Positions 719-55,805 of a stretch of DNA of 64,000 nt are shown here, piece by piece. Under the pieces are notes generated by a model. The model was not told where the DNA came from, did no database searches, and was given only the letters and a program-made list of their open reading frames with translations. The position numbers and the translations under genes are program-made. This stretch comes from Leucoraja ocellata (lineage: Eukaryota): positions 4,154,001 to 4,218,000 of the forward strand of contig JAWMAR010000193.1 in NCBI GenBank assembly GCA_036785375.1, given 5' to 3'. Each line of letters opens with the position of its first letter. Position 1 is the first letter of the stretch.

Positions 719-1490
719 AGGCTGAAATCTTGAGCTGGAGGAACTCAATGGGTCTGACAGCATTCGTGGAGGGAATGGAGAGACAATATATTGGGTCGGG
801 ATCCTTGAGCAGCACTTCATATTCCGCTTGGATTGCTTACTAAAATGGTATTCACATTGAATTCTTCAATTTCAGATAAGGCCCCTCTAACCTCAGCTCC
901 CAACACCTTAGTCACCCTAGAGAGAAGGAATGGGTGACGTTTCGGGTCGAGACCCTTCTTCAGACTGAAATGTCACCCATTCCTTCTTTCCAGAGATCCT
1001 GCCTGTCCCACTGAGTTATCCTGTCTTTTGTGTCTATATTTGGTTTAAACCAGCATCTGCAGTTCCTTCCTACAACCCAGTCACCCCGATCTTTTCCCCT
1101 CCTCTACAAGCTTGTCTACCATCCCTGGGACCCATATTTTCCTTTTATTCCCCCTTTTCCCCCTCTCCAATTCCAACACTATCCCTCCCTCAAGCTTTAC
1201 ATTTCACACCTACTTTTCTTTCCTTATCTGCCCACCTTTTGTCTCTTTTTCACCTCGAGTCTTTGTCACCTACTCCATCCATCTGTCAGCCTGCCAACCA
1301 CCTCCCTCCCCAACCTCCTGTGTCTGTCTATCACTTGCTAGGCTTTCTCTCCCCCCTACTCCATCAGTCTGAAGAAGGATTCAAGCCCAAAACATCATTT
1401 GTGCTTTCCCCACGTGACCTGCTGAATTCCTCCAGCAGTTTGTTTTTTTGCTTGAGATTCCTGCAACTGCAGTTTCTATTGTCTCCAATA
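719..1490 (+). mobile_element. Penelope-like element remnant with nested short palindromic pLTR insertion (~918-1078)
   Basis: 808-877 encodes a degenerate GIY-YIG C-terminal tail (EQHFIFRL...IEFFNFR), followed by a pyrimidine-rich UTR and pLTR-type motifs. Hammerhead-like core on the - strand at 936-963. Confidence 0.65.
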
Positions 1491-3903
1491 GATTACAACA
1501 GAATTGTTTGACAAAGTATTTTGCAGAATGAACAGCATGGCTTCTCCTCAGTTTAACCAGGTAGGTAAGTGTTCATTAATAATGAAAAAGGGAATCCTTC
1601 CAGGGGTGTTAGAAAGTACAAACAAGTCAAAGCATTTGTTCCTCGGGTAATCTACACATCAATTATCCTGCTGGGCTAATTGCTACTTTCTATACCTCAG
1701 GTACCTAAGCATTCACGCATATTCAGTCTTTCATGCTCCTGATCAAAAACTAGTAGATTGAGGAGATATTGTGAAGATAGCTCTTCTTGTCAGGCAGTCA
1801 TTTACTTATTGCACGGAGGTGGGATGGGAAGAAAAGCCATTTCCTGCACCTTGTTGTTACCTGGTGGGGTTGCTATTCAGGTGACAAGGATTCTGGCACA
1901 GGAGGGGAACAGCTGTGTTTTATACTTCATTTCCATTTGAATGAAACTCAAGTGAACCTGGGCAGAGACCTAGACTTCACCTGGATCCTATTTTCTCTGA
2001 TCTTTTAGCTCCCGAGAGAAAAGGCCTCGTGACCTCCTTGAAATCCTATTTCCTATCTAATAATTCGCAAAGTTCACGTTGGTGAACCAGTTCAGCACAG
2101 CACAAGACGCAGATACTCATCAAAATGTGTTTACGCACTGATTTTGCGCATTGTCTTTAGGAAAGTGAATTTTTAAAAAAACTGGTATGTAACTATTTAT
2201 TTTGGTAAGGGTCCAAAGACCTGATTTTGATGGTTCTCTCCAGCAAGTAGGATAGTACCTTATAAAATGTGGCCACTTAGTCACATAACCTAAGGAGTTT
2301 GATGCTGTTCATATGGGTGTAACATTGTTATGCCTGATTAAATAACAACAAGGTTCCTTGGGTTAGGATGAATATTTTCCAAGATGTTAATTCATACTTC
2401 TTTTTGCAAGTGTATGTAATTTATAAATAGATTCTCTTTTTGTCATTTTCTCCTTCCACTCTAAAAAACAATTATTTTTCTTTTAAAAAGTACTGGGTTG
2501 CAAGCCCTGACCCAGCATCCATTCTCTATTGATCTGTTCAGCGTATGTCACCCAGAACAAAATCTTCTTAGTGTTCCATTGGTACAAAAATGTAAGTACT
2601 GAAAATAATGGCCAAGATCCTCAAAGCAGCCACGGAATACAATATGCTGCCCCCCTAAACTAGGTTTAATTTGCAAAATTTAGGAATTAGTCCTCAAACA
2701 TGTAGATTGAGTAGTATTTACAGACAAGCCAATCTGCGGACCCAGGCTAAAATGGAAGCTTTTGTGACGGAAAGGTTTTCTGTTCTCTTTGGATGCATAT
2801 TGTGCCAGTTTAATTTGACCCCATTGGCTCCATACCACATTAAAGGTGGATTTCCTCACCTAGAGGCTGCTGATCAAGGTCTCTGGAACGTACTGTATCT
2901 ATTCACAAGCAACGATGACAAGGGATGGCCCTCGAATGAATTAAAATGCCAACTTTTTGCAGCTATGGGGAGCAATATAATGAGAATTTCTACAAATGTT
3001 GGCTACCAATGACAGTTTTAATCTGACTGGTTTGGCTCATCACACTTATTTCATACAGCTGTCCAAATGATCATGTAAAAGCATTGCTATTGAAATATTA
3101 TGATCCAGACAATCTAATACCTGTTTTGATGATTGCCAGCAATTGAGAAATAGCAATTTCGGGATTCACCTTGTCCAGGCTTCCAGAGGAAGTGATTATT
3201 TCCAATTGTGCATTTTTATGGTAGGTCAGACCATATTTTGGATCACGTCACTTTGGTAGTGATCATTGCGTTTTGACTTTGTAGCCCAGATACATTAAAC
3301 AGTACTCTCAAACAAAGAACCTGCATTAAATAGTTCTCAAAAAGAATGCAAAATAACCTTGAATAATTCAGATTGATTTCCATCTGTATGTCACTGATAT
3401 TCCGATTTTTCCAGTAAAGTAAAATAAATCTGTGGGAAAATATGCTAGGAGCATTCATAATTTTAATTAGGTATTGTGTTACAGGATTTTTTAGTAAAGC
3501 AAAGACTGGCAACAGCAAAACTTTGAGTCCTACAGTTCTCATTTAGTTTACATGGTAAAAGGAAGCAACTGCTATTAAATTACTTTGAAACATTCTTTAC
3601 TTATAACTCAAGCTGTGTGGAACTGTGTTGTGTTGAAACAGTGTTCAACATATGCTTGATGTGTTAGCATTTAAATTAGTCTTTACTAAATATATATTTA
3701 GCAAGTGGATTGAATTTGAAGCATGAGGTTAAAGATATTCGCAGTAGTGCATTTATGGGGTGCTACAAATGAATAATTGAAAATGTAAGTTACCTTATTA
3801 TTTTCAGTGCTTGGTATACGGGAATACCAAAGGAAAAGGGTCTGTTCATGCCATTCTAATGGAATTTTTACTACCCTGTCACCAGCAAGTTACATGCTAT
3901 ATT

Positions 3904-4324
3904 NNNNNNNNNNNNNNNNNNNNNNNNNNNNNNNNNNNNNNNNNNNNNNNNNNNNNNNNNNNNNNNNNNNNNNNNNNNNNNNNNNNNNNNNNNNNNNNNN
4001 NNNNNNNNNNNNNNNNNNNNNNNNNNNNNNNNNNNNNNNNNNNNNNNNNNNNNNNNNNNNNNNNNNNNNNNNNNNNNNNNNNNNNNNNNNNNNNNNNNNN
4101 NNNNNNNNNNNNNNNNNNNNNNNNNNNNNNNNNNNNNNNNNNNNNNNNNNNNNNNNNNNNNNNNNNNNNNNNNNNNNNNNNNNNNNNNNNNNNNNNNNNN
4201 NNNNNNNNNNNNNNNNNNNNNNNNNNNNNNNNNNNNNNNNNNNNNNNNNNNNNNNNNNNNNNNNNNNNNNNNNNNNNNNNNNNNNNNNNNNNNNNNNNNN
4301 NNNNNNNNNNNNNNNNNNNNNNNN
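3904..4324. other. assembly gap or masked run of N
   Basis: 421 N. Confidence 0.99.
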
Positions 4325-5480
4325 TGCTATTCCCCTCTCACCTCTCCCTCCGCCTTCTTCATTCCCCCCTTTCTCCGTCTGCCCATCCTGTCGACGCACC
4401 ATTGTGATATTGCTAATTTTATTCCCTGAGTTGTTATCATTATTTGATAATGTGGTCACCCATTTGAAAAGTAAACACGATTTAAAATATGTATAACATG
4501 CTCTAAATGCCTCAGTGTACAGTTCTCAACAATTCTTACGCTCCTTTATTCCCTAGCACGATGGAAGCACTAAAGATCTGCCAAATGTTCATATCTCAGA
4601 TGATGTAGTGGGGAGGTACTCCAACTAACAGGGGACTTTGCACATGCGAAAACATTTAGGCCTCCGTTGCAAGAGAAAGGAAGCTGATAGCAGTGCAGTG
4701 TGACTATCTGCCTGACTTTTGCCACACCCTGCGTTAGACTGATGAGCACCAGTTTACTACCCACGTCAGCAGATTCCAGTACCTGAGAGATAGGGTTCAG
4801 CAGGCTGCTGATGGCATCGGGCCATACAGGCCTCCCAGAACAGCTGAAACTAACAGGAAAGGGATTGGAATCTGAATGCCGTATGAGGCCAGGCTTCAGA
4901 GAAAGGCCACAGATAAGTGTTTTGACTTTTGAGCAGTTACATCCACAGCAGACGGATTGTACCGCCCGTACCATGTGTTATGTTGAATCCTCAAGCCAGT
5001 GCTTCAGTTATGTCTTCCAGGATGGTGTAGAAACATTTGGGAAAGCTGGAAAAATATGTTTATTGGGGCCAGATGGGAGAAAAGATACAGCAAGTGTGTG
5101 AAGGCTAATGAGGGTGAGGTGAAAGCCACTAGGACAAAGGTAAGCTTGACTATTTACCCAGGTGGAGAAAGAGTATTTATTCCTTAAAGAAAATAAAAGC
5201 TGCAAGAAGTCCAACAGAATAAAAGGTGAATCATGTAGTGCCTTCTCCCAAAATGACACAAGGTCTTATTACAGCAGATCAAGATGCTGATATTGGATCT
5301 TAGCCTGAATTAAATTCAAGCAAACAACCGATCGCATGTTCTCTTTAACAGGACATATGTAAGTGAAATAAATAGAAATAATATCAAGCTTTCTGGCCCA
5401 ATTCACACCAGATGAACTATTTTAGAACTTTGATGTTTGATTTGTTTGCAAATGGAACAGACTGACGTACCACAGAAATA

Positions 5481-5708
5481 GTGTAGAAACAAGGCACAGC
5501 AGATGCTGGTTTGCACAAAAGGACACAAAGTGCTGGAGTAACAGGTCAGGCGGCAACTCTGGAGAACATGGATAGGTGGTGTGCCTGGACGGGACCCTTC
5601 TTCAGAGTGTGGAGTCTGAAGAAGGTTCCCAACCCAAAACGTCACCTATCCATCTTCTCCACAGATGCTGCCTGGCCCACTGACTTCCTCCAACACTTTG
5701 TGTCCTTT
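5481..5708. mobile_element. palindromic Penelope-pLTR-derived short repeat
   Basis: ggacacaaagtgctggag...cttcttcaga followed by its inverted copy tctgaagaag...caacactttgtgtcc. Confidence 0.7.
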
Positions 5709-6681
5709 TCCCACAGAAATCGTATATTGATTCTGTATTCTTATGCAGACGGTGGGCTCCATTTTGCTTGACCTACAAAAATTCTGCAAATCCACATGAT
5801 TTCACAGTTCATATATTGAGGTGTATTTACACAACGATAGCCCTCACAAGCGCAAAAGGCATGGCTGTGGCAGTATAAATTACACGGGGTAAGTTCATTG
5901 ATCCCATTCTCTTCAGCAAGATGCTGTACTTGACAAGTCTCTGAGCTACAATATCCAATGCCACTTTTCCAGCATTTTTTCCTTTCAGTGTGAGATCGAT
6001 GAACGTAATAGGTGGCCCAAAAGTTTTTTTTTTTGGCCCGTGTACATACTTTGTAATGAATAGATTGTGTGAAATACCGCAAGCAAGTCAGCTGATGCAC
6101 ATACTCCAGTCCGTCTTGGTGCAGGAACTGGGAATATATATCAGGTTAGTAATTGTTCTTTGTCCGTTTAGCCAGGAATAGTCTGCCTTATTCCAATGCC
6201 CTGTGTATATTCTGATGGAATCGGTCACGTTTGCATTAAAACAGTTATTGTGATAGTTTGGGTCTGGCCCATGTTGCCTGATACATTGAGCCACTGAACC
6301 AATGAAATGGTTCAAATGACAAAGCTCATACCATGAACCCATTTCAAAGTCATGAATTGAAATCTCTAGTCTGCTCTTTTCAAAATTCTTGATGGCATGG
6401 CAACAAAGAAGCAAGCAAGTGTTTTACGTTGCGAACTGTATAGACTTCTCTTTGAGGCTGCAGTAATTGTGCAGAGGCGTGCAGAGTGTATATGTGTGGC
6501 GTATGTGTGCCTTTGTGTGCCTGTGTGAGTATGTGTGTGCATGCGCATCAACATGTGTGGGTGGGTGCACGCATCTGTAAATGGATAAGGAAATTAAAAT
6601 GCATGTTAGAATAATGAAATCGATATGTGTATAAGATGTTAAAAGAGAGAGTTATAGTCATACAGCACGGAAACAGGTCAT

Positions 6682-6841
6682 AGACACAAAATGCTGGAGT
6701 AACTCAGCGGGACAGGCAGCAGGTCGACCCAAAACGTCACCCATTTCTTTTATCCAGAGATGCTGCCTGTCCCGCTGAGTTACTCCAGCATTTTGTGTCT
6801 ATCTTTGGTTTAAACCAGCATCTGCAGTTTCTTCCTACACA
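6682..6841 (+). mobile_element. palindromic Penelope-pLTR-derived insertion with 12-bp TSD
   Basis: Inverted arms agacacaaaatgctggagtaactcagcgggacaggcagc / gctgcctgtcccgctgagttactccagcattttgtgtct. Flanking direct repeat gaaacaggtcat at 6670-6681 and 6842-6853. Confidence 0.75.
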
Positions 6842-7753
6842 GAAACAGGTCATTTGGCCCACTTTGCCCATGCTGATTAAGATGTCCCCACTGTGCTTGT
6901 CCCACCTGCCTGCAAATCTAATAACCTAAAGTTGTTATTACAAAGTACACTCATTAAGTCCATGAAACAATTTCAAGATTGGATTTACATGTTTGAACCC
7001 CAAAGTTTCAATTAATTGAATACTAATATCACTTAAAAGTTATTTTAAATTTACCTCCTGATGCTTTAGGAAATACATGCAAGAGACCATCATTTAAATT
7101 ATAACGCTAAGATATCTGGAGACACACCTTGCAGTCAATCATAGTGTTGCAACCAATATCAAATTTGAACCATCTGGGTTTTTTTTTGTTACAACTGTGC
7201 TGCCATGCCATGACGTGATGATTTGTGAGGTACAATTAAGTATTTGATGAATAAATGTTCTGTGCCATAAGAAATGCTTACATGTGATTTACAAATAAAT
7301 CTATGGTGAGAATGTTCAGCATCAAATTTGAACCAGAAACTAACTTGGAGGTAGCAAATGGCAAGTTGAACCGTGAATGTGGTCTGGTTGGTTGCTTACT
7401 TCTTTTGAATGTTTTTTTCTTCCCATACCTGTTCAAAATCTGCCAGCTTTCCTCCTGTTTGCACCAGTGTATCGAGGGGAGGAGTTCAACAAAAATACTG
7501 ATTAAATTATGCATGGGAGCAGATAAGATACTTAATTTAGTCACTGCCTTTTTTTTAAAAAGCCGTAGGAAGCTAAAAAGAGACCTTTATTTTCTAAAAA
7601 GAAATTGGCCCCTTTGTGACAGCAAAGTACCAGCTTGCACACAGGCGAAACTGTAACAATTTTATATTCTCAACGTTTTGTGTGTATTTGGTTAGTTACA
7701 GTAATTATGCCCAATAACTGACAGCCGAAATCACGTAGGGAAAGGCAGACTGC

Positions 7754-8105
7754 NNNNNNNNNNNNNNNNNNNNNNNNNNNNNNNNNNNNNNNNNNNNNNN
7801 NNNNNNNNNNNNNNNNNNNNNNNNNNNNNNNNNNNNNNNNNNNNNNNNNNNNNNNNNNNNNNNNNNNNNNNNNNNNNNNNNNNNNNNNNNNNNAAAGCTG
7901 ATAGGATGTGGTCGCTGGCTCACCTGTGTGACAAACAGATTTTTTTTCCTTTGCTCTTTCGACCTGANNNNNNNNNNNNNNNNNNNNNNNNNNNNNNNNN
8001 NNNNNNNNNNNNNNNNNNNNNNNNNNNNNNNNNNNNNNNNNNNNNNNNNNNNNNNNNNNNNNNNNNNNNNNNNNNNNNNNNNNNNNNNNNNNNNNNNNNN
8101 NNNNN
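7754..8105. other. two N runs (7754-7893 and 7968-8105)
   Basis: runs of N separated by 74 called bases. Confidence 0.99.
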
Positions 8106-10134
8106 CTTGATGGGGGCTCTGTGCATTTGTTGCAAGATAGAACATGTGTGGATGTGTGTGCACAGATGGCTGAGTGTTATGGGGTGAGAAAAGGTGGTAC
8201 CTCAGAACAGTTGAACAAACCTTGCTCTGCTAGCCTGTTGCTTGGGATTGAACAAATAATGGGACTTTAATTGAATTAAAGACCAGCCTCAGTCAGTGCC
8301 TCGTGACAGAAATTATCGAATCTCTCGTTTCTCATTGTTCCATTTACACGTCGCTGAATTTCCTGCTTTTGTGCTTTGTCACCCCTGCTATAAAGAATAC
8401 CCGTAATGCATTGAACGTCTGCCTCTGTGCTTTTTCACTTCTGTCACTTCTTGCCTAGTTTTGGTGGGTTGTGAGGTGAGGTCTGGTATAGTCAGCTGCA
8501 TCTTTGTCAGCTTAACAAGGCCCAAAACTCCCTGGAAACCTAGCAGACAATGACCTCATTTCCAATTTGCAAATGCGCACACCTCCCCATTGAGCCATTC
8601 AGGTGATTAACATACTTCCAAATCCTTTTTTTTCTAAGCACGACAAATTTGCTTTCATCCAATGAGGTGAATGTCCGTTCACATCCCATGCAAGTGATGG
8701 GCTGGAAAGCAACACATGCCTGTGAGCCGTGCCAGACAGAGAAGGCCCTTGTTAATTCCCAGCACCAGAAATAAATATGATTCTTAGCTGAGAGGATTAC
8801 ATGGCATTTGAGTATAGGCTGCCCCAACCAGAAGTGAACTTTGTATTTTTCCTTATAAAACAACTGCTCTGCTGCTGATGGAAGGCACTCACTGTGAGTC
8901 TTTAGCTGCATGGGATCACGAGAGTTTATTTGCACTAAGTTATTTCCTTGTGGACCCGGCTGTCAGTTCTACATTTAAAGGTATGGTTCGATTTTAGTCA
9001 CTCCTGTACAAGCGATTTTGTAAAAGAGGTTCTAGTAAAAGTTGAGATTCACCGACGAGAAGGCTGACGGGGACTCTGGCTGAATGAATTTCATTGCTGT
9101 TGTTCTTGGATGCAAGAAGTTATGCTTTAGGTGGAGACAAAAGGCCTCAAAAGAACTATAAATCAGGATTAGTATTCTGATTTTGATTGATAATTTATTG
9201 CAAGGGCTTTTCGGGGGAGATTTGCTAGTCAGTTTTAAGTGATTTTAGTACTGATACATAGTAAAAAAAAGTGATCTTTCGTTCCAGTGCTGCCTGATTC
9301 TATTTGCATGTATATTAATCAACACTAAACCCAGGATTGACTTGTGGCCTTGAATTGGAGATGATCCAATGTTTCAGGTACTACTCCCTTTGGGGGAATA
9401 AAGCATGGTGCTGAGTACAAGTGGATGGTCAGAATACTTAAAATGTATCATAACCTTTGATCTAAAAGCTTCAAACTGTTCTTTCAGTATTTAGTAGAGA
9501 AAGAGTATATTTAGCCAATGCTTTTACCATAATTTATATTTGCTGGGTTTTCTGCTAAAAGCATTGCTGTGAAAGCTGGCACACGAAGACAATGATCTGT
9601 AAAGGCAGGAGGTTTAATGCTTTATGTAAGATCAAACCTTTGCAATGTTCTGTTTTCATTTTATTTTCCCCCGCATTTGACTCTGTTATTTAAGCTCCAT
9701 TCATTCAGAGGCAATCGAATCAGCTGTCAGTTCTGTTTACAAGCCTGCAATTAATGCATTGTCTTTACTTGATGCCCCCATGCCATCTAATTTGCTTGGT
9801 CACAAGTCAGGAAACAATTTGGCGCGATGACGTCTTTGCTGAGCGTGATCATCATTGATCGCACTGGTTGCTGAGTGCATGTTATTTCAGTTGCAGCAGA
9901 GGTGCCAAATGGATGGTCCATTATTACAAAGCCTAGGTCATCCACAAGGGGCTCTTTGCCAAATTGGTTGTCTATGTTGAAGCGAGGATCTTAAACCGTG
10001 CAAAACACTTTGACCAGGCATTATCATGTGGACCCTGTGGCAAAATGGCTGCAATAGTAGGTGAGCATCTGAGTAGGAAATAGAACATAATCACCTGAAC
10101 TTGAGGACCATTCGCACTCTCTTTTCGCTCATTG

Positions 10135-11490: not shown

Positions 11491-12409
11491 CAACAACCAT
11501 GTAGTCATATAGCATGGAATAAGGCCCTTGGGCTCACTGAATTTGCACTGACCATAAAGCACTCATTTACTCTACTCCTATTTTATTATTTTTCCAAGAT
11601 TTTACCACACCTCCCTCTTTGGGGCAATTTACAGAGTCACCTGCTATTTTGCACGTTTGGGATGTTGCCCAATACCTCTTCCTGAGAATGAGTTTGGATC
11701 ATATAGTTACACCAACACTCAGACCACACGGTTCTCACACTGAACACCACTATGGTCTGAAATGGCCTCAATGTATGTCAGAAGGAACTGCAGATGCTTG
11801 TTTACACCGAAGATTGACACAAAATGCTGGAGTAACTCAGTGGGTCAGGCAGCATCTCTGGAGAAAAGGAGTAGGTGATATTTTGGGTCGAGAACCTTAC
11901 AGTCTAATGAAGGGCCTGATCCGAAACGCCATCATCTCTCTTGCCTCAATATATCTTCTGTTAAAACTGTCATCTACGCCTTTCTTAGTTTTGATCACAC
12001 TATTCCAATACAATCCTGAGTATCATATGGTTCTTTATAAACCAGAGAAGACTGGAACCTTCCTGCCCAAGTCAAAACTGGATCCCACTACTTGTAGGCT
12101 TTCTAACCTATCGAGCTATCTTAATTCTTACCAATTTTAAAATCCCATCTATAGGCTTGGTTGACTTTGTCACCAGCTCTGAAACCCATTAATGTTTCCG
12201 TGCTCCTTCAATTCTTTGTTATTTCCAAATTCTATTCCAGGTCTGCCTTCAGCATTCTTCTCCCTAAATCTCAACACCTCCTTTCAGATGATCTTTGACA
12301 TTTATCTCTCTAACTTATCTTAAGCTCATCGAATATATCTTGTGGCCAGATGTCAAACTTTATTAGCTAAGTCTCGTGAAGCACCTAAGGCCATTTTCCC
12401 GTATTAAAA

Positions 12410-12760
12410 ACTCAGCAGGTCAGGCAGCATCTGCAGAAGGAAAGGACAGATGACGTTTCGGGCTGGGGACCTTCTTCAGATTGATGAGTAGTGGGGAGAA
12501 AACTGGTAAAGAGATGGTCGGGTCGGGCAAAGCCTGCAAGTGGTAGGTGGCTGCAGATGAGGGGGGCTGATTGGCAGATGGGTACAGTAGGTGACAAAGG
12601 CTAAAGGTGAAAAGGCGACACAAGGATATCAGATAAGGTAAGAAGGGTCTAGACCCGAAACGTTGCCTATTTCCTTCGCTCCATAGATGCTGCCTCACCC
12701 GCTGAGTTTCTCCAACGTTTTTTCTACCTTCAATTTTCCAGCATCTGCAGTTCCTTCTTA
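12410..12760. mobile_element. Penelope pLTR fragments in both orientations
   Basis: Hammerhead-like core on - at 12452-12479, plus an oppositely oriented copy agaagggtctagacccgaaacgttgcc at ~12641. Confidence 0.65.
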
Positions 12761-15700: not shown

Positions 15701-16938
15701 AATATCCCCACTTTATGTTAAAAAAAATCATTTATTTTCAAAGGGCATTTCTTAGGCTGAACTTGGCTAAACCCTTGTGGTCACACCTCTTTGAAAAGGT
15801 TTTGTTTCGTCCGTCAATTGGTATTCAAACCAGGTCAGCATTTCTGTTTGCCCAACTTTGCTGCCGTTTTCATTTTAATTTGCACCTGTTGTGCAGTTGT
15901 TGGAAAGGCAAGTGCAGACCCGCGGATTGTACAAAGATCATATTATGAGAAGATATGCGCGGTGCAATCTTTTTGTCTGACTGATGTCGTTTTTAAGATT
16001 TTTCTTTAACGGTACTTTTCAAAGGATTAAAATTGAACTACAAACCTTACAGAAAGCTGCCGATATCATAGCCTGGAGTTGTTAGCAGAAAAGATTTAAT
16101 CGTCGAACAAATTCATGAGACCAGGACGCTAAACCTGATACAAGCAAAATTCTGCTCCTGCCACTCTATATAATCTGGTCGCTGGCAAGAGCTGTTCGAG
16201 ATAGTTCAGCAGATAAAACCAAAGGATTTCTCGATTGAGAGTAAAGAAATCAAAATGAGCCTGAAAAGAGTTGGGATGTTTTTCTTGGTTCTTCTTCCCA
16301 TGATGTCATATAACTGAGCTGTTCTGTTGTGAGCATGTGTATTTGCATGCAAGTATGTCCATTTGTGTTTCCCATGAGCTGGGTTAAACAGTTTCTGGCA
16401 GTGTTGTGTCTGCATATGTGTATCTGATGGTATGTTTCGCTAGCTAAACTAATGCCCCTGTGTTTATTACTCTAATCTTTCTTGTCGAGTGGCAAAGTGG
16501 ACAATTTATGTACTACCATGCACACTGAATGACTGGAAAGGAAGACTAATGCAGAAGCAGCCACCTTCAATTCAGTTCAAAGACCTTATTTATAAACTGT
16601 CCATTTTAAGGAATGCTAGTGCGAGTGTATCAGGTCTGTGTAGCAAAATAAACTGGTTTATTTCGTTCCTGATTTGTTCTGACATTTGAAACATGTTTTG
16701 AAGCATAATCTGCATGTTTTGTCAGTGTTCTCAAAAAACCGTAAAGTGGAGGGACTGCTGTGGCAGCTTGGGTGAAGGAATTCATTAAAAAAAGTTAAGA
16801 CATGGTCAGGTCTGGAAGAATGTAAGAACTGTGCAGCTTGCAATGTACTTTGCTTCATGAAAAGCTATGGTTTTGTCCACCTATTTATTTTTATTTTTTT
16901 AACTCCAGCATCTCCAATTCTCCTTTTCTCCGCTACAG

Positions 16939-17196: not shown

Positions 17197-17769
17197 GTAA
17201 GTCAAACGTCTGGACTAAGAATAAGACCGATACTCAATTAAAAAAAAATATATCTGTTGTTGGCCTTCCACAAAATACTTCATTCCAATTTATCTAACTC
17301 AACATGTGGGTTAAACTGTGGAATGAACTACACATTTTTAAAGTTTGTAATATTGCTTGTTAAGTCAACCACTGTTATATATTAAACTAGTGACACCCTT
17401 TAGAAGCCAATGCAACTTTGTAAACCAAAGGTTAAACTCATAAAAGGCCCCTGTTATCAGTTTTATGGATCTTTCACTTACCTTGTGTTGAATTTAATTA
17501 AAGAAAAACATTGGGGAGTAGTGCAGATGTAATTATTGCTTAATTATAGGTAAATAATATCACTTCATCATCCTTTCTAAGGGCTATAGTCTCCATAAAA
17601 TGACATTAAAAAAATTCCACTAATATCCCCTGTCAATCAAAGAGCTACATGCTCTAATATATAGAGTTGAGATCAGTGGAATAACCATTAAAACTGTTTA
17701 AAATATAATCTGAGATTACAATTCCAGCTGTGGTCGACATATCTTAATAGCAAATGTTAAAAAGTGCTT

Positions 17770-18062
17770 TTAGTTTAGTTTAGTTTAAAGATACCGCATG
17801 GAAACAGGCTCTTCGGCCCATCCAGTCTGCGTCGACCAATGATCCCTGCACATTAACACTATCCTACACACACCAGGGATATTTTATAGTCATACCAAAC
17901 CAAGTAACCTACAAACCTGTACGTCTTTGGAGCGTGGGAGGAAACGGCAGAACTCGGAGAAAACCCACAAACGTACAAACTCTGTACAGACAAGCACCCG
18001 TGGTCAGGATCGAACCCAGGTCTCGGGCGCTGTAAGGCAGCAACTCTACCACTGTGCCACAC
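17770..18062 (-). mobile_element. V-SINE (HE1-like)
   Basis: Antisense tail tttagtttagttt, V-domain and tRNA-like head. Confidence 0.8.
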
Positions 18063-19559: not shown

Positions 19560-20502
19560 TGTTTCTGCAAATGTTCCAGGTTCAATGACGGTTTGTTATA
19601 AAATCGTTGGAAAGTTTTCTCCGTTGACCATCCTGCTGTCTTGAGGATTTGGTCCATAGGAACATCCAACTTCATAGCTGCCGATGTAGCTGCAGCCCTG
19701 GTGGAGTGAGATTTAAAATGCTAATGTCCATTCCAGCCTTATTAGGACCTGTTTTAGCCATCTAGAGATGGTCTGGACTGTCACTGTTTTGAGTGGCTGT
19801 TTGTAGCTGATTAAAAGTGACATTTCTTTCCCTCTGATGATCATAATATACTCCATATATAATAAGTGTGTTACAATACAGCGACGATCATCTGTCGGGT
19901 ATGCCCTGAATTCTGTTTTTAAGCCTGCTGACCCCTGTCTGTTCTGTTTGACTAATTCATTGATGTGAAAAGTTAAATTTCCAGATGAAATAGTCATGTT
20001 GTCCAGCCTTAGTTTCTGTAGTGACTGGACCCTTTGTGCCGTGACCAAGGCCATCAGCATGACTGTTTTCATAGTCAGTTTCTGTAGGGACAGAGCTGTA
20101 GCTGGAGACCAGCTTCTTAACATGGTCAGTACAATGCTCACATCCCATATTTGGGAGTACCTGGTTCTTGGGGGATTAACATTAAAATGCCCCTCATGAA
20201 TTTGGTTACCCGGGTGTGTCCCAACGGAATGCCGCTCTGTTCCTTGCCACAGGTATGTTGACAGAGCACTTCTGGGGCAGTTGATGGCACTATGACTGAG
20301 CCTCTCATCGTAATGGAGGCTTGCCAGGAATTCCAGAACAGACGGGATGTTCATAGATCTGTGGGTGATGTTTATTGTTGTGACAGTACTTCCCATTTCT
20401 TGATGACAGCAAGTACTGTTTTTTGGTGGACTGTCTGTGGGCCGATGCAATCATATCCATTGTTCGGTCCGTCAGTCCCAGGTGTTGTAGAGGTGCTTTC
20501 AA
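19560..20502 (-). pseudogene. DIRS tyrosine recombinase (frameshifted)
   Basis: LTMKTVMLMALVTAQRVQSL (catalytic R region); in another frame SHSTRAAATSAAMKLDVPMDQILKTAGWSTEKTFQRFY (HxxR motif, catalytic Tyr). Confidence 0.9.
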
Positions 20503-20623
20503 ACTCTACAAATTAATAGGTTTATATAATTATGACATGGGTGACTTTCCTTTGTTACTGGATGGACCAGTAAATTAGGTCTATGATGGATGGTGATGCA
20601 TGGTTCTAATACCATGTCTAATA

Positions 20624-21388
20624 TCACCGAGAACCATGAGTAGGGCAATCGGGTACTATCAAAATACCAGACGCAGAGTCTTGCTGTATTTTCCTTAATA
20701 CCCGACTGATGAGGCAGAAAGGAGGGAATGCATAAATAAACAATTTCCCCCAATGCAGCGAAAATGCATCTGTTGCCGCTGCCCCAGGGTCTGGTTCCCA
20801 TGAAACATAATTTGATAACTGGTGATTGAGCCTGGAAGCGAAAAGATCGATATCTGGTGTTCCATACCGTGCTGTAATTTCAGCAAATACATTTTTATCC
20901 AACATCCATTCAGTGTTTTCATTGAATTTGCGTGATCTGGTGTCTGCCACTAAATTTAGTTTACCTGGTAAGTAGGTAGCTGATATCCAAATATCTCTCT
21001 GGATACACCATTGCCAAATTGTGTTGGCCAGATTGTCACGTGATGTCGATTTGTTTCCACCCATATGGTTGATATATACTACCACGGTGGTGTTGTCAAT
21101 CTGTAGTCTAACATGCTGGTGATTTAACCCAGAACAATATGACTTAAGGCCATGGAATGCACTTAACATTTCCAGGTAGTTTATGCCCAGTGTTTGTAAT
21201 AATGATGCCTCCTGTGCATTCCATCTCCCTCCACAGCTGGAGATGGAATTGGTAGCACCCCAACCAAGTGCACTGGCATCAGTTTGTAGTACCATAGACA
21301 GTTTGCTGATAATTATTGGATTGGAACAATACCTGATGTTATGTTCCCACCATTTTAGTTCCATTATGGCCTCTGTTGGTAGCTTCAT
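20624..21388 (-). pseudogene. DIRS RNase H plus N6-adenine methyltransferase-like domain
   Basis: TDASALGWG, INYLEML, IDNTTVV, NLVADTRSR (RNase H); DLFASRLNHQL and YAFPPF (MT-like). Confidence 0.9.
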
Positions 21389-21858
21389 TGGTCGTCAAAA
21401 TGGCCACCATTAATTTTGAGTGCTCTTATTTTTGCTCTCTGTAAATTTCGATAGTGTAAAGGTCCGAATTGTGTGGCTGGAAATGCAGCCACTATCTTCC
21501 CAATTATTCTAGCTACCAGTCTAATGGATGGTTTGGTGATGTCAATGATTTCGCTACAAGCCTCTATTAAGGCTGTAACCTTTTCTTTCGGCAAAGTCAC
21601 TGACATGAGAACTGAGTTAATGGTGAACTCCAGATAATCCATTTTTGTTGAAGGCGTTAATTTAGACTTAACTGGATGGATGATAAACCCCAGTTTTTCA
21701 AACAATTGTTTTGTGGCTGTTCCCGCTTGTTTAGACAATTCCAAAGTTTTGCCAACAATAAGTATGTCATCTAGATATGCCATTACCATGTGTTTTTGTT
21801 TCCGCAGTAACGCTAGGGCTGGTTTCAAAATATTTGTGAACAGCCTGGGGGCTGATGT
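21385..21858 (-). pseudogene. DIRS reverse transcriptase, C-terminal part
   Basis: TSAPRLFTNILKP...MAYLDDILIVG...LGFIIHPVKSKLTP. Confidence 0.9.
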
Positions 21859-22319
21859 TCTGCCGCTAAGGGGAACGTCGTCCCCCCTGCTGTGACTCGT
21901 TGCAATGCGTGTAGCGATATGACACGCATGCGTCCTGGCAGGGTTCTTCACGTTGTCACTCACGTGACTCCGAAGTAAAATTCACCATTCCATGTACCAG
22001 TCTCCGCTACTTCCACTATAAATGGTTCTTTCCACTTCCACATTGTCACATATAAAGACCACACTGCTACATTCATCAAACATTACCCCTATTACTGAAT
22101 CCTCTCTCACTAATAATCATCTCCGCTACTTATCACATTCTCTTTCCCTGTACATCTGCTTCTCATAGAGGCATAGATAATACTGATACATCAAGGAAAC
22201 ATGCCCTTCGACCCAACTTACCCATGCTGACCAAGATGTCCCATCTACACTAGTCCAACCTGTCTACCTTAATTTATCCTCAAATTCTCTCTCTTTCTGT
22301 ACCATACAATCACAGATAA

Positions 22320-22627
22320 ATACAGTGTGGAAAGCGTTCCTTCTGGCTCACTGAGCCCACGTAGACCTTCAACCATCCATTTATACTAATCATACATTAA
22401 TTCCATTTTTTATTCACCCCACATTCCCAGCAACGTACTGAAATGTACTGCGGGCAGTTTGCAAACATACTGGGGAAATCTACCGACCCGCTCATCTTTG
22501 GGATGAGGTAGGAAACTCACGTGATCACTGGGAGAATATGCAAACTCCATACAAACAGCACCTGAAATCAGGACAACACTCTGGCCTCTGACGCTGTGAG
22601 ACATAAGCTACACTAACTGTGCCACCT
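22320..22627 (-). mobile_element. diverged V-SINE
   Basis: Antisense V-domain (gggagaatatgcaaactccatacaaacagcacc) and head. Confidence 0.65.
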
Positions 22628-26060: not shown

Positions 26061-26386
26061 TGGGCAGCACAGTGGCACAGTTGGTAGATCCGCTGCCTCA
26101 CAGTCCCGGGTTCGATCCTAATCGTGGGTGCCATCTGTATGAAGTTTGCACGTTCTCCTGTAATTGCATGGGTTTCCTCCGTGTGCTCCGATTTCCTCCC
26201 AGATCCCAAAAGCATGTGGGTTTGTAGGTTAATTGACCACTGTAACATTGCCCCTAATGTATACAGAGTGGATGAGAAAGTGGGATAACATAAATGTTAT
26301 GTGAATGGTTGATTGGTGTTGGCATGGACCTGGTGGGCCAAAGGGCATGTCTCCATGCTGTATATCGAAACTAAACTAAACTAAAC
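26061..26386 (+). mobile_element. V-SINE (HE1-like) inserted into the tail of a minus-strand CR1 fragment
   Basis: tRNA-like head, V-domain, (aaact)n tail. Confidence 0.8.
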
Positions 26387-26820: not shown

Positions 26821-29001
26821 TGGATGCAAAGCAATTTGGAACATCTGAATCTTGGTTCTACTTAGAATGGAAGACCAGCCTTCAGACCAATAGAAGTGCT
26901 TTCAGGCAGTACCAAATTGACAAGACATTAGTTCTCTTCTTCTTTTTGCGTATGGTATGCACAGCCTAAAGTTGTAGGACAACTTGTTCTATTTGATATT
27001 ATTTGATTGTGCACACCAGGTTGATTGCATTCGTCGAAACAGGACGGACCATGTGAAGGTTGCAATCTCCCACCCCAGGAATTTAGTTGATCTTGAAGAA
27101 AGCTATGTATTTTATGTTATTGCCCCATTAAACAGTTTGTGCTAGATCTAGCTCCTCCAAAGGTGGCAACTTTCATCCAAGTTATCCATAATATCATAAA
27201 AGAGAGAGGTCCCAGCAATAATCTATGTGGAACACCGCGGGTCAACAGACCTCTGCCAGAATAATGCCTTTCCACCACTATCCTCTGTCTTGTATGGGAA
27301 CACAAATTCTGAATCCAAGTTACCATCACCATGGATCTCACACATGCTAATCAATGTAAATATAATCAGGACATAGTTTAATCAATACAATACAGTTACT
27401 CTTTAACAGTGTTATCTAAACCTTAAGAAGAAAAGCAATGAAAACGTTGCAATGTAATGAAAACATATCCTTTTATAGGTAATATAGTTCCTTTCTTTCC
27501 TGTAATCTTTTCTGTGTAATCTCTTTTGCCTTTTCCTGTGAAGATTCCAATCAGTTTAACTTCCGTCTACAAGTTCAATGTCCCGATTCAGCCACTCAAA
27601 TATCCTTTAACTGATTGGAATAATTTGTGTGGATTGTCAGAACTGACACTAGGATTTGAAAATGAGTTACATTTAACAAATGCCTGTGTTGATTCAAAGA
27701 GAGCTCTGGCATTTGTTAAATGCAACATAATTCCTCCCTCTTGAACCTCCAGTTCAAAAAAGAGTCCAACTTGTGTGCTGAATTCAGTTGAAGTGTGTAT
27801 TTGTAACTTATTTAAACACAGGCTACAATTACATGTATGTTGTGATGGGAATCAAAGGAATAATAGTGTCAATTCTAATTTGATTTTTGATATAATTTGT
27901 TGTATTTGCAATCAACCACATCAAGTTTAATTCCTTACAATAAACATGTACTTAAATTTAATTTAACAAGTCAGGATCTAAAAAAGTAGGGAAAAGCAAC
28001 AAATGGGAAGATTTCAAGAATTATTTGGTGAGAAGTGCTTTGTAAAGTATTTTAAGGTAATCCAATTGAATATTAAATAATTGAACCTCAAAAGTACATT
28101 AACCAAAACATAGGCTTTCCAATTCAGAAGACCTAATATTGCCTCAAAAATACCTCTGTACATCCTTCTGAGAACATTGCTTCTGAAAACTTGGAGGCAC
28201 CCTAGCTTAGAAATCTGGCCCATTCTCCTGAATTGGCAGACACATTAGGAATACCACTTTATTTTGCTGAGGGAGGCAAGATGCGAGCACCAACTGTATT
28301 AGCAGGATATTGCTGGCTGGAGGCTTTGAACGGCAAGACACGGTGTGGCCAGCAATAATCCTCAGGTAGGTTGTTAAATGGGGAGTTGGAGATGTGCGAC
28401 TCGGAGGGTGATTGTAAGAGGAAACCAAGAACACCTTCAGCTTACATAACTGCGAAAACATACTAATGCTATTCCAACATGCAGTTAGTCATGTTGTTCC
28501 CTTTATCTGAGATTTCTTCATTTCTTTCGCATTTAGCAGTGGCCAGTCAGAAAATCAACCGCACCTGTCTCATAGTTTTTCATAGCTTTCTTGCTGGCAT
28601 AGGACCAATAGACAGCAATTTTTTAAGACTGTGATGATGCAAATTTTTTCTTCATGCAGAGAACTGCAGATCCTTGAAATTCCATATTTAAGATGGCTTT
28701 GAATGTTATTAACAATGGGAGAACTGGAGGATACGATGATTAGATGAGTAAATGGATGAGATTCAAGATCAGCAGTTGCAGAGCATTCTGAAGGGGCTGC
28801 ATGCCACTCTCCCACTTCTAATGTTCTCGTGAAGTTTCATCAGTTAAGCTCTTGACTACCCACATGAAAAGTCACTGCTTTCAAAAGTAATTCAGTGAGA
28901 AGTGCTTTGTGAAGTGTTTCACGACGATAATACGTGATACGATTGAATATCTAATAATTGAACTTCCGAAGTACATCAACCAAAATGCAGGTAATTGTCA
29001 A

Positions 29002-29143
29002 GGTGTGTAGGAAGGAAATGCAGATGCTGGTTTATACTGAAGATCGACACAAAATGCTAGAGTAACTCAGCGGGTCAGGCAGCATCTCAGGAGAAAAGGA
29101 ATAGGTGATGTTTCAGGACGGAACACTTCTTCAGACTGTTGCC
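29002..29143 (-). mobile_element. short Penelope-pLTR-derived insertion with 9-bp TSD
   Basis: aattgtcaa at 28993-29001 and 29144-29152; body matches the other pLTR copies. Confidence 0.75.
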
Positions 29144-30445
29144 AATTGTCAATTGGGTCTGAAATGCTAAAGGCCCAATATTGCCCCCAAATAATGCTTT
29201 TATCTTAAAAACAAGATTTCCCCGTCATAAAAATTCCAAACCAAAATAAACATGCACATAATACCGTGTAGGTAATAGAGGTGGAATGGGAAAAAAAAAT
29301 AATAGAACTCCGGTGCTATAGGTGCTGGAATTATCCTCATTTTTTTCAGTCATGTATAGCTGTTGGTTAGAATAGCATCACATTATTTTTTTCAGTTAAA
29401 ACAATTTTATAACAAACTTTTAGACAGTGGAGGCGGAAAGATTCAAGAGTACATTAAGTATTTTCTGCCTTTACTCCACAACAGGAAAACTCTTTGTCTC
29501 CTCCGCTCCCCTGACTGGTGTTGGGCACCATGAGTGGTTGTTGCCCTCAGATATTTCATGCAAGAAGCCATTGTTCGCATGTGAATGGAAAGGCTGTCTT
29601 AACAGTGGTCGATGTTGCAGCCAAACCTAATACTACAGTCATCTGCTGTGCTTACATTGGTACTATCAGTAGGGACTAGGCAGAGTTATGAAGAATGAGA
29701 GCCAACGTAATGTTGATGTGGTGTACTTTGATATTCTAATTGTCAAAAAGTTGATAAAAAACACGTATAATATCTTGTGGGGGATCTGATTGAGACATTG
29801 TATACCCTTAATTTATTAGTGTACAGAGAAACTAATCTTGGTGGGCGATACCTTCCAGAATGTCACTTAGTGAGTTCATAGTACTTAGTTTTTTCTTATA
29901 GCTATGTTCTAAAGTAACAAGACTTACGGGTTGCTATGACTGATGCTAAAGGCTCTCATGGAACAGAGCATTATGTGTAGTCAATCCACACACAGTTTGC
30001 GCCTACACGAGTGAAGGCATAGCAGTGTCATACCAGCCTCACTGAGGTCTGGCAATAATCCACATTGCTAAAAAATACAATGGGCTAGTGAAAGGTCACC
30101 CTAGAGAACATGCATAACGCCTACTGCAAAGCTGTCAAGGCTACATTCTGAAGAAATGGTCAGGCATTAGAGATTCAGTAGCCAACATCATTATAAATGG
30201 GTTAACCCTTCCCCTGGATCAGAGCTATCCTTTAACTGCAGATGGACAAATGGCGAGAGATAGATATTGAAAACAATGGAAAATCCTTGAGCATGGTATG
30301 AGGAAACTCCAATCGCTTTCAATTTGAAAAAAAAATAGAGGATTTTACACTGTGTCATTGTGTTCATTGATACTAATCTTGGGGGGGGGGGGGGGGGGGG
30401 ATACCTACCAGAATGCCACTCAGTGAGCTTATATCACTTTGCTTT

Positions 30446-30876
30446 TAGAAATATAGAAAATAGTGAGCAGGAGTAAGCAATTTGGCCCTTCGAGCCAGCA
30501 CCGCCATTCCCGATGATCATGGCTGATCATCCAAAACCCGTTCCTGCTTTAACCCCATATCCCTTGATTCCTTTAGCCCTAAGAGATAAATTAACTATCT
30601 CTTGGAAACATCAAGTGAATTGGCCGCCACTGCCTTTGTGGCAGAGAATTCCATAGATTCACAACTCTCTGGGTGAAAAAGTTTTTCCTCATCACAGTCC
30701 TAAATGGCCTACCACTTATTCTTACCCCTGGTTCTGGACTCCCCCAACATTGGGAACTTTTTTCCTGCATCTAGCCTGTACAATCCTTTAAGAATTGTAT
30801 ATGTTTCTATAAGATTCCCTCTCATCCTCCTAAATCCCAGTGGATACAAGCCCAGTCGACCCATTCTTTCATCATA
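30446..30876 (-). mobile_element. CR1 LINE 3' end
   Basis: Antisense of FTQRVVNLWNSL and of the 3'UTR stem and tail. Confidence 0.85.
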
Positions 30877-30877
30877 G

Positions 30878-31648
30878 ATAATTTAGATTAATTAATTAAA
30901 AGTAATATTAGCAAATTTGCAGATGACACAAAGCTGGGTGGCAGTGTGAACTGCGAGGAGGATGCTATGAGGATGCAGGGTGACTTGGACAGGTTGGGTG
31001 AGTGGGCAGATGCATTTTAATGTGGATAAATATGAGGTTGTCCACTTTGCTGGCAAGAACAAGAAGGCAGATTATTATCCGAATGGTGTCAAGTTGGGAA
31101 AAGGGGAAGTACAATGGTATCTGGGATCCTTGTACATCAGTCACTGAAAGTAAGCATGCAGGTACAGCAGGCATTGAAGAAACCTAATGGCATGTTGGCC
31201 TTCATAACAAGAGGAGTTGAGTATAGGAATGGAACAACTGGGCTTGAATACAGTGGAATTTAGAAGGTTGAGATGGGATCTTATTGAAGCACATGATTAT
31301 TAAGGGATTGGACATGCTAGAGGCAGGAAACATGTTCCTGACATTGGGGGAGTGCAGAACCAGGGGCCACAATTTAAGAATGGGGGGTAGGCCATTTAGA
31401 ACGGAGATGAGGAAACAGGTTTTCACTCAGAGAGTTGTGAATCTGTGGAATTCTCTGCCTCAGAAGGCAGTGGAGTCCGATTCTCTGGATGCTTTCAAGA
31501 GAGAGTTAGCTCTTAAAGATAGCGGAGTCAAGGGATATGGGGAGAAGGCAGTAACGGGATACTAATTGTGGATGATCAGCCATGATCACAGTGAATTGCG
31601 GTGCTGGTTCGAATGGCTGAATGGCCTACTCCTGCACCTATTGTCTAT
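30878..31648 (+). mobile_element. CR1 LINE 3' fragment
   Basis: SKFADDTKLGG RT motif and ...RTRGHNLR...FTQRVVNLWNSLPQKAVE; 3'UTR ggcctactcctgcacctattgtctat. Confidence 0.9.
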
Positions 31649-32397
31649 CATATTTCCTATATTGAAGTTCTGAAGTTGCAAGATTTAAGCATTTCTATAG
31701 CACAGTGTTACTGTATGTGAACAAATTACCATGATCAGTTGGGAGAGAGTAGGAGTAAGTCTTGTGATGGATTGACTCAATCAAGACATGGAAGTTATCA
31801 TCAATGAAGGGAGCGATATTAACTGAAAATTATGGCTTCTCGCTTTCCCGCCTTGACCTGAGAATTAACTCCAATTCTGCTTCATCGTCCTGAAGTCACT
31901 TACAAACACGATTCTCTGAATCTCAGATTTAAAATGACAATTGACTTTGCATCAGTTGCCATTTATGGAAAAGAGTTCAAAATTTGTTTCCTAACTTCAC
32001 TCGTAAATAGCCTGATCAAATTTCCACTGCCAACCAGAGGGAATAGTTTGTGCCTCCCAAACCTTATACTTTATATCTCAAAAACTTAAAACGTTACCCA
32101 TTAGTGTACTAAATTCCAAAGAATACAATGCTTGCTTATGAAATATCTCCACACACTCTAACCAGGCAATACCTATCATTCAGGAAAAGCTTCACTCCCT
32201 CCTAAACAAATTTGCCTACCATACCCAGCAAAATACTAAGTGCTGGAGGAACTCTGTGGGTCAGGCAGAATCTGTAGAGGGAAATGGACAGATGATGTTT
32301 CAGGTTGGGATCCATCATCAGTCTGAAGAAGATTCCAGCATCTGAATTCTCTTGTGTCTCCTTCTTGCACTACTCGGTTTTACAGCACGACTTTCAC

Positions 32398-32547
32398 CAT
32401 GTGTAAGAAGGAACTGTAGATGCTGGTTTAAACCGAAGATAGACACAAAAAGCTGGAGTAACTCAGCGGGACAGGCAGCATCTCTGGAGAGAAGGAATGG
32501 GTGAGAGAAGGAATGGGTGACGTTTCGGGTCGAGACCCTTCTTCAGT
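32398..32547 (-). mobile_element. short Penelope-pLTR-derived insertion with intact hammerhead core
   Basis: Flanked by ctttcac (32391-32397, 32548-32554); - strand reads CTGAAGAAGGGTCTCGACCCGAAACGTC. Confidence 0.75.
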
Positions 32548-32656
32548 CTTTCACAATTACTTGCCTATGATTGATGCACAAAGAGGCCTGAATGCTGAAT
32601 ATCTGAAGATAGAGCACATAATCGTTGATTGGTCCTATCACTATATCAAACTATGG

Positions 32657-33763
32657 TAGACACAAAATGCTGGAGTAACTCATCAGGACAGGCAGCCTCT
32701 CTGGAGAGAACGAATGGGTGATGTTTCAGGTCGAGACCCTTCTTCAGACTCATGTCAGGGGAGTGGGCACGACAAAGATAGAATGTAGTCGGAGACAGTA
32801 AGACTGGTGGGAGAACTGGGAAGGAAGGGGATTGAGAGGGAAAGCAAGGGCAATTTAAAGTTAGAGGTCAAAGTATGGTGATGGTCATTAGGGAATGTGG
32901 TGTGATGGGCAATTCAAAACAGAATGACTCCCACACCAATCTCGACTATACTTCTTTCCACCCTGCTTCCTGCAAAGACTCTATCCCCTACTCCGAATTC
33001 CTCTGTCTACGCCCAAGATGAGGTGTTCCATACCAGAATATCCGAGATGTCCTCATTCTTTAGGAAACGGGGTTCCCCTCTCCCATCATAGATAAGGCCC
33101 TCACTCGTGTCTCTTCGGTAGCGCGCAGCTCCGCCCTTGCTCCCCCTCCCCCTAGTCACATTAGAGACAGAGTCCCCCTAGTTCTTACCTTCCACCCCAA
33201 CAGTTGTCGCATACAACACATTATCCTCCAAAATTTCCGCCACCTCCAACGGGATCCCACCACGAGCCACATTTTCCCATCTCCACCCCTTTCTGCCTTC
33301 CGTGGCGAGACCAAACGCTGACTGGGCAATCGTTTCGATGAGCATTTTCGCTCAGCCTGCCTGAACCATGCTGATCTCTCTGCTGCTGGACACTTTAATT
33401 CTCCTTCCCATTCCCACACAGACCTATCTGTCCTCCATTGTCAGAGTGAGGCTAAACCCAAATTCGAGGAACAGCATCTCATATTTCGCTTGGGCTGCTT
33501 ACAGCCCAGTGGTATGACTATTGATTTCTCTCACTTCAGGTAGCCCCGGCATTCCCTCGTTATCCCTCCCCCTCCCAGGTCGCACTAGCTTCTCATTTTC
33601 ATCCTACAAACAGCTTATAATGGCCTGTTTCCTTTACCATCATTGCTTTTTTGCATTTCTTTCGTTCATTGTCTGAAGAAGGGTCTCGATCCGAAATGTC
33701 ACCCATTCCTTCTCTCCAGAGATACTACCTGTCCCGCTGAGTTAATCCAGCTTTTTGTGTCTA
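32657..33763 (+). mobile_element. 5'-truncated Penelope-like element with inverted 5' pLTR
   Basis: RT C-terminal remnant (LDYTSFHPASCKDSIPYSEFL) and GIY-YIG remnant (GETKR...HFNSPSHSHTDL...EEQHLIFRLG); ~90-bp inverted arms at 32657-32749 and 33671-33763. Confidence 0.85.

Positions 33764-54802: not shown

Positions 54803-55805
<1,003 letters not shown>

Follow-up and report, generated by a model that had tools for sequence, protein, structure and literature searches.

Hammerhead copies at the ZEB2 locus

The window analysed here is a stretch of 64,000 nucleotides from Leucoraja ocellata (contig JAWMAR010000193.1, positions 4,154,001 to 4,218,000, forward strand). It carries exons of the gene ZEB2 and, dispersed among them, repeats that contain a minimal hammerhead ribozyme motif and derive from a Penelope-like retroelement. 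A reading of the letters alone (the sequence-only reading) had described these repeats as a high-copy family of ribozymes. We consider it likely that the copies in the window are instead 5'-truncated or inverted Penelope hammerhead stubs, reverse-transcribed from uncut RNA and predicted to be weak or silent. The features are collected in Table 1.

Both exact copies of the 28-nucleotide motif named earlier were present (936-963 and 32519-32546, - strand), as were the variant with a weakened stem II at 12452-12479, whose third stem II pair is disrupted, the near-intact + strand copy at 33673-33700, and decayed copies at 1369, 5616, 11904, 12637, 29107 and 32720. A degenerate core pattern matched the window 12 times, against 0.02 expected from 100 shuffles, and a profile of the segment 3' of the motif recovered 19 copies. 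Further copies, beyond the earlier list, lie at 5578, 11877, 23560, 32294, 43184 and 51489. The homeodomain of the large exon matched the ZFHX1B structure (E 5e-30) better than the ZEB1 structure (4e-10). Because ZEB2 lies on the + strand, the copy at 33673 is intronic and sense, as had been proposed for ZEB2 pre-mRNA, and the copies at 936 and 32519 are antisense. No second intact + strand copy for the one at 33673 was found in the window; three lie in the 100 kb of flanking sequence that was examined. The copy at 32720 is on the same strand as that at 32519, 200 nt apart.

Table 1. Hammerhead-bearing repeats, endonuclease remnants and ZEB2 exons in the window.
Feature	Position	Strand	Remarks
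Hammerhead motif, exact 28-mer	936..963	-	helix I 2 bp; arm of head-to-head inverted pair; antisense to ZEB2
Partner arm of the 936 inverted pair	968..1074	+	begins within motif at GAAA, extends through tail
Decayed copy	1369..1396	+	palindrome and one stem II pair lost; pyrimidine-rich 3' untranslated region (UTR) upstream
Inverted pair, both decayed	5481..5709	.	5578-5605 (-) and 5616-5643 (+); G12 to A in + copy
Inverted end-piece pair without recognisable core	6680..6911	.	chance Rfam hairpin match
Inverted pair, both decayed	11760..11930	.	11877-11902 (-) and 11904-11930 (+)
Copy with intact core, broken stem II pair	12452..12479	-	older subfamily type
5'-truncated copy	12640..12760	+	start at ~+10 of motif; 10-bp target-site duplication; decayed motif at 12637
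Short stub, full tail	28998..29141	-	9-bp target-site duplication; stem II broken; decayed motif at 29107
Decayed copy, older type	32227..32331	-	motif 32294-32321
Stub with exact 28-mer	32400..32549	-	motif 32519-32546; short internal duplication; full tail; without first helix I pair
Copy with 3' UTR upstream	32651..32870	-	motif 32720-32747, palindrome broken (CA)
GIY-YIG endonuclease reading frame, broken C-terminal remnant	33300..33542	+	directly upstream of 33673 copy
3' UTR, hammerhead motif and end at ~+96	33543..33769	+	motif 33673-33700; sense, ZEB2 intron
Decayed motif and second endonuclease remnant	43184..43619	-	motif 43184-43211; remnant upstream, 43467-43619
ZEB2 large exon	49188..51170	+	homeodomain matches PDB 2DA7, E 5e-30
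Decayed copy, older type	51429..51522	-	motif 51489-51516; G8 changed
ZEB2 last zinc-finger exon	56690..57250	+	C2H2 matches; gene assignment inferred from neighbouring exon

Architecture of the motif

Positions are numbered from the C of CUGA (C3) as +1, with the cleavage site between +28 and +29. The catalytic boxes (C3-A9, G12-A15.1 and U16.1-H17) are complete, at 11 of 11 core positions, in the copies at 936, 32519, 33673 and 12452 and in intact units of the element, which bears out the proposed fit to the hammerhead core. Helix II comprises 4 bp, GGGU/RCCC with G10.1-C11.1 and an inserted A after A9, closed by a CUCG or UUCG (YUCG) loop. We prefer it to the 5-bp GGGUC/GACCC stem read earlier because the latter leaves a loop of only 2 nt. 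Positions 15.2-16.2 are palindromic (CG). Within the genome the stem II change was one-sided only (U-A to U-G), without two-sided covariation. In helix I, 2 contiguous pairs are followed by two mismatches and another 1-2 pairs, and the shortness of this helix at 936 and 33673 had been described correctly; relatives have 3-7 bp, with a median of 4 bp in 22 of them. The copy at 33673 carries two substitutions against the 28-mer, one G-U pair in stem II and a U-G in place of the CG palindrome. At 32519 the first helix I position is A opposite A and unpaired. The Rfam covariance models (cmscan, E<=5) gave no hammerhead match in the window and 4 matches to other families; the plastid psbJ and microRNA matches at 6.7 kb were rejected as the hairpin of an inverted pair.

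Judged from sequence, the motif is a hammerhead by descent. Among 80 metagenome loci encoding relatives of the element's open reading frame (ORF), 29 minimal hammerheads were found where shuffled or reversed sets gave 0.15, with a descriptor that demanded the core and a helix I of 2 bp or more. All were sense to the ORF except one inverted terminal copy (28/29 sense). In these relatives the stems vary freely, and the core, the inserted base and the palindromic 15.2-16.2 are kept. The motif was found in no viral contig and in no GTDB genome.

The parent element

These motifs belong to the minimal type I hammerheads and sit in the pseudo-long terminal repeat (pLTR) of a Penelope-like retroelement, probably of Neptune type; the association of such hammerheads with Penelope pLTRs is already published. 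The Penelope origin suggested earlier is supported by a GIY-YIG remnant that immediately precedes the copy at 33673 and by full units with reverse transcriptase (RT) and endonuclease. The intact unit of 3,946 bp occurs in head-to-tail arrays (L416, L418-L421), with 99.97% identity within one array. It consists of the motif, two end sites (~+93 and ~+130), an ATG at +165, an ORF of 1,221 aa and a pyrimidine-rich spacer of ~120 nt. In an intact tandem, 120 nt separate the motif from the ORF that precedes it and 164 nt from the one that follows.

The single ORF encodes the RT followed by a C-terminal GIY-YIG endonuclease. Its Pfam matches (RVT_1, E 1.6e-6; GIY-YIG, E 0.013) both fall slightly short of the curated cut-offs, and its homologs carry PF00078 and PF01541. 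The best named homologs, from Chiloscyllium, Rhincodon, Mobula and Hypanus, share 65-73% identity. In the translated ORFs the linker between RT and endonuclease reads CNRKRCNTC or CNRKKCNTC (C-X4-C-X2-C). It fits the definition of Neptune/Nematis, which includes a zinc-finger-like linker C-X(2-5)-C-X2-C (Craig et al. 2021, PMC8557442).

Of 407 sampled copies, 27, among them that at 33673, are preceded on their own strand by the end of the GIY-YIG ORF; a few of these ends belong to neighbouring insertions. First-look candidates numbered 151,256 for the endonuclease, 36,160 for the RT thumb and 2,039 for the N-terminus, and this fall in counts is the usual gradient of 5' truncation. A young subfamily with a UUCG loop and a GUU triplet has intact 1,221-aa ORFs in tandem units of 3,946 bp that are almost identical and occur at many loci (L416, L418-L425; e.g. 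G000:C300:1139423-1151300), which suggests recent or current activity; the N-terminal part of the ORF contains a short peptide repeat in variable number. There is also a composite of ~3 kb with two blocks of endonuclease end plus hammerhead ~720 nt apart (L021, L022, L025, L030, L032, L045, L048). Its copies are ~88% alike, and it is the most plausible natural dimer.

Copy number and conservation

Across the 3.44 Gb of the genome there are 21,383 exact copies of the 28-mer (reversed control, 0). We sampled 80 stretches of 10 kb at fixed positions on the 60 largest contigs, in which a profile of the post-cleavage segment found 350 copies (reversed control, 0 at E<=0.01). By extrapolation the genome holds ~1.5 million end-pieces, with each arm of an inverted pair counted.

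For subfamily clustering, 213 of the 407 sampled copies were long enough. Across the seven subfamily majority sequences, 1 of 16 core positions was variable, compared with 21 of 62 downstream (p=0.03), so the core is better conserved than the flank, as the sequence-only reading expected, and this holds for the master copies. Individual inserted copies decay almost neutrally: non-CpG decay was 7.6% in the core and 9.4% downstream, and at CpG sites 25.6% and 18.8%. Core, stem II and palindrome are all kept in 37 of the 181 copies reaching -1 (407 matches overall).

In an old subfamily, recovered with a pattern that fixed the 5' half, C replaces the core A9 in 20 of 25 copies inspected. Its helix I could potentially extend to 3 bp, GUC/GAC. 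A canonical variant with that helix and an intact A9 gave 0 exact matches, and a looser pattern led back to the A9C subfamily. Its members (L261-L285) have an extra C before the core, with 86 exact matches to a 24-letter pattern. Among other copies (L356-L385), 14 of 30 inspected share a recurrent deletion of 12 nt between two ACCC words, which loses GAAA and the cleavage triplet. Two loci (L081:9050-9200 and L083:9080-9220) show a short tandem array of ~70-nt units from the segment after stem II, without CUGA.

Ends of the stubs

The ends of the copies record how they were made. Among 388 alignable sampled copies, 163 were in inverted pairs. The 225 non-inverted copies started at -7 to -1 in 78 cases, 10 of which may extend into UTR that is not represented. 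Starts at -3 to -1 numbered 48, against 6 at +28 to +30 and a background of 1.3 per position (+8 to +45). Target-site duplications of 9-16 bp flanked 27 of 221 copies, compared with 2 of 657 shuffled pairs, and of the 27 starts defined in this way 15 lie at -10 to -2 and none at +29. Genome-wide start patterns gave 1,879 matches at -2, 649 at +29 and 298 at a control position, +33 (uninspected); 18 of 30 inspected matches to the +29 pattern were classed as internal deletions or indels. There is no excess of stub ends at the cleavage site. In independent runs of other organisms, loose ends recur at -3 and -2. The 3' ends are bimodal, at +91-96 and +123-135.

A conserved TCAGT spans -3. The base before AGT plus motif is, genome-wide, C in 9,433 cases, G in 1,100, A in 952 and T in 913. 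Inspection showed short or inverted stubs for 25 of 30 G copies and 20 of 20 A copies, three with a duplication abutting A(-3). In the sample, a G that could have been templated by a cap accounted for 17 of 21 non-C cases; being weak genome-wide despite this strong sample, the signature was dropped as proof of the start site.

Predicted folding and transcripts

Folds were predicted for monomers, without Mg2+ or protein. Relative to the optimum, the hammerhead-like fold costs 6.2 kcal/mol, compared with 3.0 in relatives (p=0.003), and the probability of helix II is ~0 in 8 of 8 own copies against a median of 0.94 in 22 relatives. Helix II is predicted to be unformed because GAAGG of the core pairs with a downstream CCUUC. 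This competition recurs in most of 51 intact copies across clusters and is weakest in cluster 0; with only 1 usable copy per old cluster, no trend from older open to younger trapped subfamilies was shown. On these models the window copies are predicted to be catalytically weak or silent, and they are probably fossils rather than working ribozymes within ZEB2. Minimum free energy folds of the 5' RNA were no more stable than shuffles (z-scores not significant). At +48..+82 and +108..+116 of the repeat, AGAUGCUG can pair with either of two CAGCAU words, in folds that are not significant; each word shortly precedes one of the two 3' end sites, and the pairing is a candidate RT-start signal.

For a related organism, 18,989 of 7.3 million polyA reads (0.26%) fell on the repeat, on both strands alike, and 98% of them continue into unrelated sequence. 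No pile of read starts was seen among these reads. No RNA record was listed for the window itself. If even a small share of such stubs could be activated by the element's protein, host RNAs would be affected, which is hypothetical.

Of the high-copy elasmobranch ribozyme family proposed earlier, the copy number stands, and an elasmobranch host is likely from the shark and ray homologs at 65-73%. A working ribozyme is not supported for the dispersed copies, given a 2-bp helix I, a helix II predicted unformed, near-neutral decay, no excess of ends at the cleavage site and, for the ZEB2-sense copy, no intact sense partner in the window.

Origin of the stubs and role of the hammerhead

Starts at -3 to -1 together with ends at two tail sites make reverse transcription from uncut RNA likely, and the 5' end of that RNA just before the motif is probably a transcription start. 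Transcription would begin at the A of TCAGT (-3), which resembles the initiator consensus. Such a start would place the RT start site twice in each transcript, once in the 5' UTR and once where the RNA reads through at its 3' end. If primed at the 5' copy, reverse transcription of uncut RNA would reach the RNA end within 95-135 nt and yield the mass of stubs; priming at the 3' copy would give long insertions; second-strand or template-switch events may produce the inverted pairs. The 2-bp helix I and the competing GAAGG/CCUUC helix would hold the ribozyme off unless the element's protein refolds the RNA. Cleavage of the 3' motif would separate the RT start site from the ORF and would therefore be a late step or a brake. 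Penelope itself has an internal promoter with initiator and downstream promoter elements (PMC2377424). We put forward, tentatively, that the hammerhead of this fish lineage sits at the extreme 5' end of the mRNA as a switch silenced by its own fold, with the start three bases before the core, the core locked in an inactive helix, and more than one million promoter-bearing stubs made from uncut RNA by priming at the 5' copy. If this is true, the intact 3,946-bp units and the nucleotide-level record offer a tractable system for the role of Penelope hammerheads, a role termed unclear in PMC8557442.

Several observations weigh against this proposal. Apart from a single CpG-prone position in the oldest subfamily, the core does not vary among the seven, an invariance that speaks for selection on catalysis in the master copies. 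The missing starts at +29 mean that cut RNA was not copied, not that RNA was not cut. The cap-templated G is weak genome-wide (1,100 of 2,965 non-C cases, 37% against 28-34% expected), GTC microhomology at the inversion junctions can account for many of the -2 starts, and the folding models omit dimers as well as Mg2+ and protein.

We think it unlikely that the repeats form an active family in which paired copies, in tandem units or in introns such as that of ZEB2, cleave RNA as dimers through an intermolecular helix III at ACGU. All young subfamilies retain the core and G10.1-C11.1, with compatible stem II changes (U-A to U-G) and a loop that remains YUCG; tandem spacings of 3,946 nt and ~720 nt are real; and dimers and trimers of such motifs are reported to have low activity in vitro (PMC4209133). 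However, helix I has 2 bp against a median of 4, the core is predicted to be trapped, core, stem II and palindrome survive together in 37 of the 181 copies that extend to -1, the 18,989 polyA reads show no start pile, the stubs show no excess of +29 starts, and the window lacks a second intact + strand copy. A reading that is possible though doubtful makes the motif a catalytic vestige, without cleavage in this lineage, that is kept as a DNA or RNA signal such as an internal promoter or a protein-binding site. The A9C subfamily spread nonetheless, helix I is reduced in the young subfamilies, the motif fills the first 30 nt past the inferred start, where the internal promoter elements of Penelope sit (PMC2377424), and Naiads thrive without hammerheads (PMC8557442). 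Yet a promoter role alone leaves stem II pairing and the palindrome unexplained, and the Anolis motif likewise seems inert before protein is added (PMC11167929).

We regard it as quite improbable that the shared 5' boundary is not a transcription start but a stop of reverse transcription or a splice acceptor formed by a pyrimidine tract and YAG. A C/T-rich tract and YAG do precede T(-1) in all subfamilies, the near-palindrome CAGTCTG favours fold-back, and the 5' end of helix I in Drosophila virilis coincides with the end of an intron (PMC4209133). But in three inspected copies the target-site duplication abuts A(-3) and no foreign exon intervenes, which places the AG within the copy; the upstream flanks are mutually unrelated; and no sense GT-AG joint to -1 was present among the joints listed.

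Comparison with known elements

As a ribozyme family the repeat is ordinary, since similar motifs have been described in Penelope-like elements across animals. With the metazoan Penelope minimal hammerheads (Cervera and De la Pena 2014, PMC4209133) it shares type I topology, the CUGANGA and GAAA boxes, the extra nucleotide between A9 and G10.1, G10.1-C11.1, the palindromic 15.2-16.2, the pLTR position and a mass of solo copies from truncated elements. Helix I has 2 bp here, 4-5 bp in the Schistosoma families and 2 bp in D. virilis; helix II has 4 bp compared with 7-8 bp in Schistosoma; and the copy number is two orders above the 4,000-9,000 of coelacanth and Xenopus (PMC4209133). No cartilaginous fish is named in the main text portions or in two of the three supplement files of that paper. 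Among the papers listed, our literature search found no report of an elasmobranch family, although supplement file 1 of PMC4209133 and the supplements of the bioRxiv preprint cited below may name cartilaginous fish.

The endonuclease-bearing Neptune/Nematis elements (PMC8557442) likewise have a single ORF with RT then GIY-YIG, the linker and the CCHH residues, and partial or full tandems forming pLTRs, an inverted 5'-truncated copy and a tail of 30-40 bp. Unlike them, the skate element has clear target-site duplications of 9-16 bp in a subset of copies and a long repeat-bearing N-terminal part in its 1,221-aa ORF.

Work on the Anolis carolinensis element Poseidon (Frangieh et al. 2024, PMC11167929) reports that RT starts internally at the tail, that protein assists cleavage and that insertion does not need it; the two-site tail signature is tied there to two internal RT starts. 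In both elements two adjacent 3' end sites bound the tail and no RNA-seq ends fall at the cleavage site, and uncut RNA, the likely template of the stubs, is also the template in Poseidon. The Poseidon ORF starts inside the hammerhead and its RT starts lie 111-118 nt into the ORF, whereas here the ATG at +165 follows both end sites. Non-LTR retrozymes (bioRxiv 10.64898/2026.07.22.740005), in a survey that included one chondrichthyan, resemble the stubs in being non-coding, hammerhead-bearing and derived from a Penelope pLTR. In retrozymes each unit of a tandem array has its own complete hammerhead, whereas the stubs are solo or head-to-head with individual junctions. Identity with retrozymes was rejected: the window copies are solo or inverted, and the tandems are coding units or endonuclease-bearing composites.

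The value of the repeat lies in its evidence on the role of the hammerhead, as a very large set of insertions says that the template was not cut RNA. This record agrees with the sole study done in vitro and suggests a start site that immediately precedes the core. Interest attaches mainly to the record of end points and to the young units that are still intact.

Other features of the window

An open frame at 16776-17297 (+) resembles what we take to be an early ZEB2 exon. In a ZEB2 intron, ORFs at 19713-21981 (-) resemble an RT, an RNase H and a tyrosine recombinase, presumably from a retroelement of the DIRS type, and 30393-31648, 53647-53971 and 55008-55810 resemble sequences that we assume to be 3' ends of CR1-type long interspersed nuclear elements. 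Another dispersed repeat of ~320 bp, with copies 65-75% alike, lies at 156-478, 17769-18060, 22510-22626, 26063-26385, 40439-40578 and 41081-42039.

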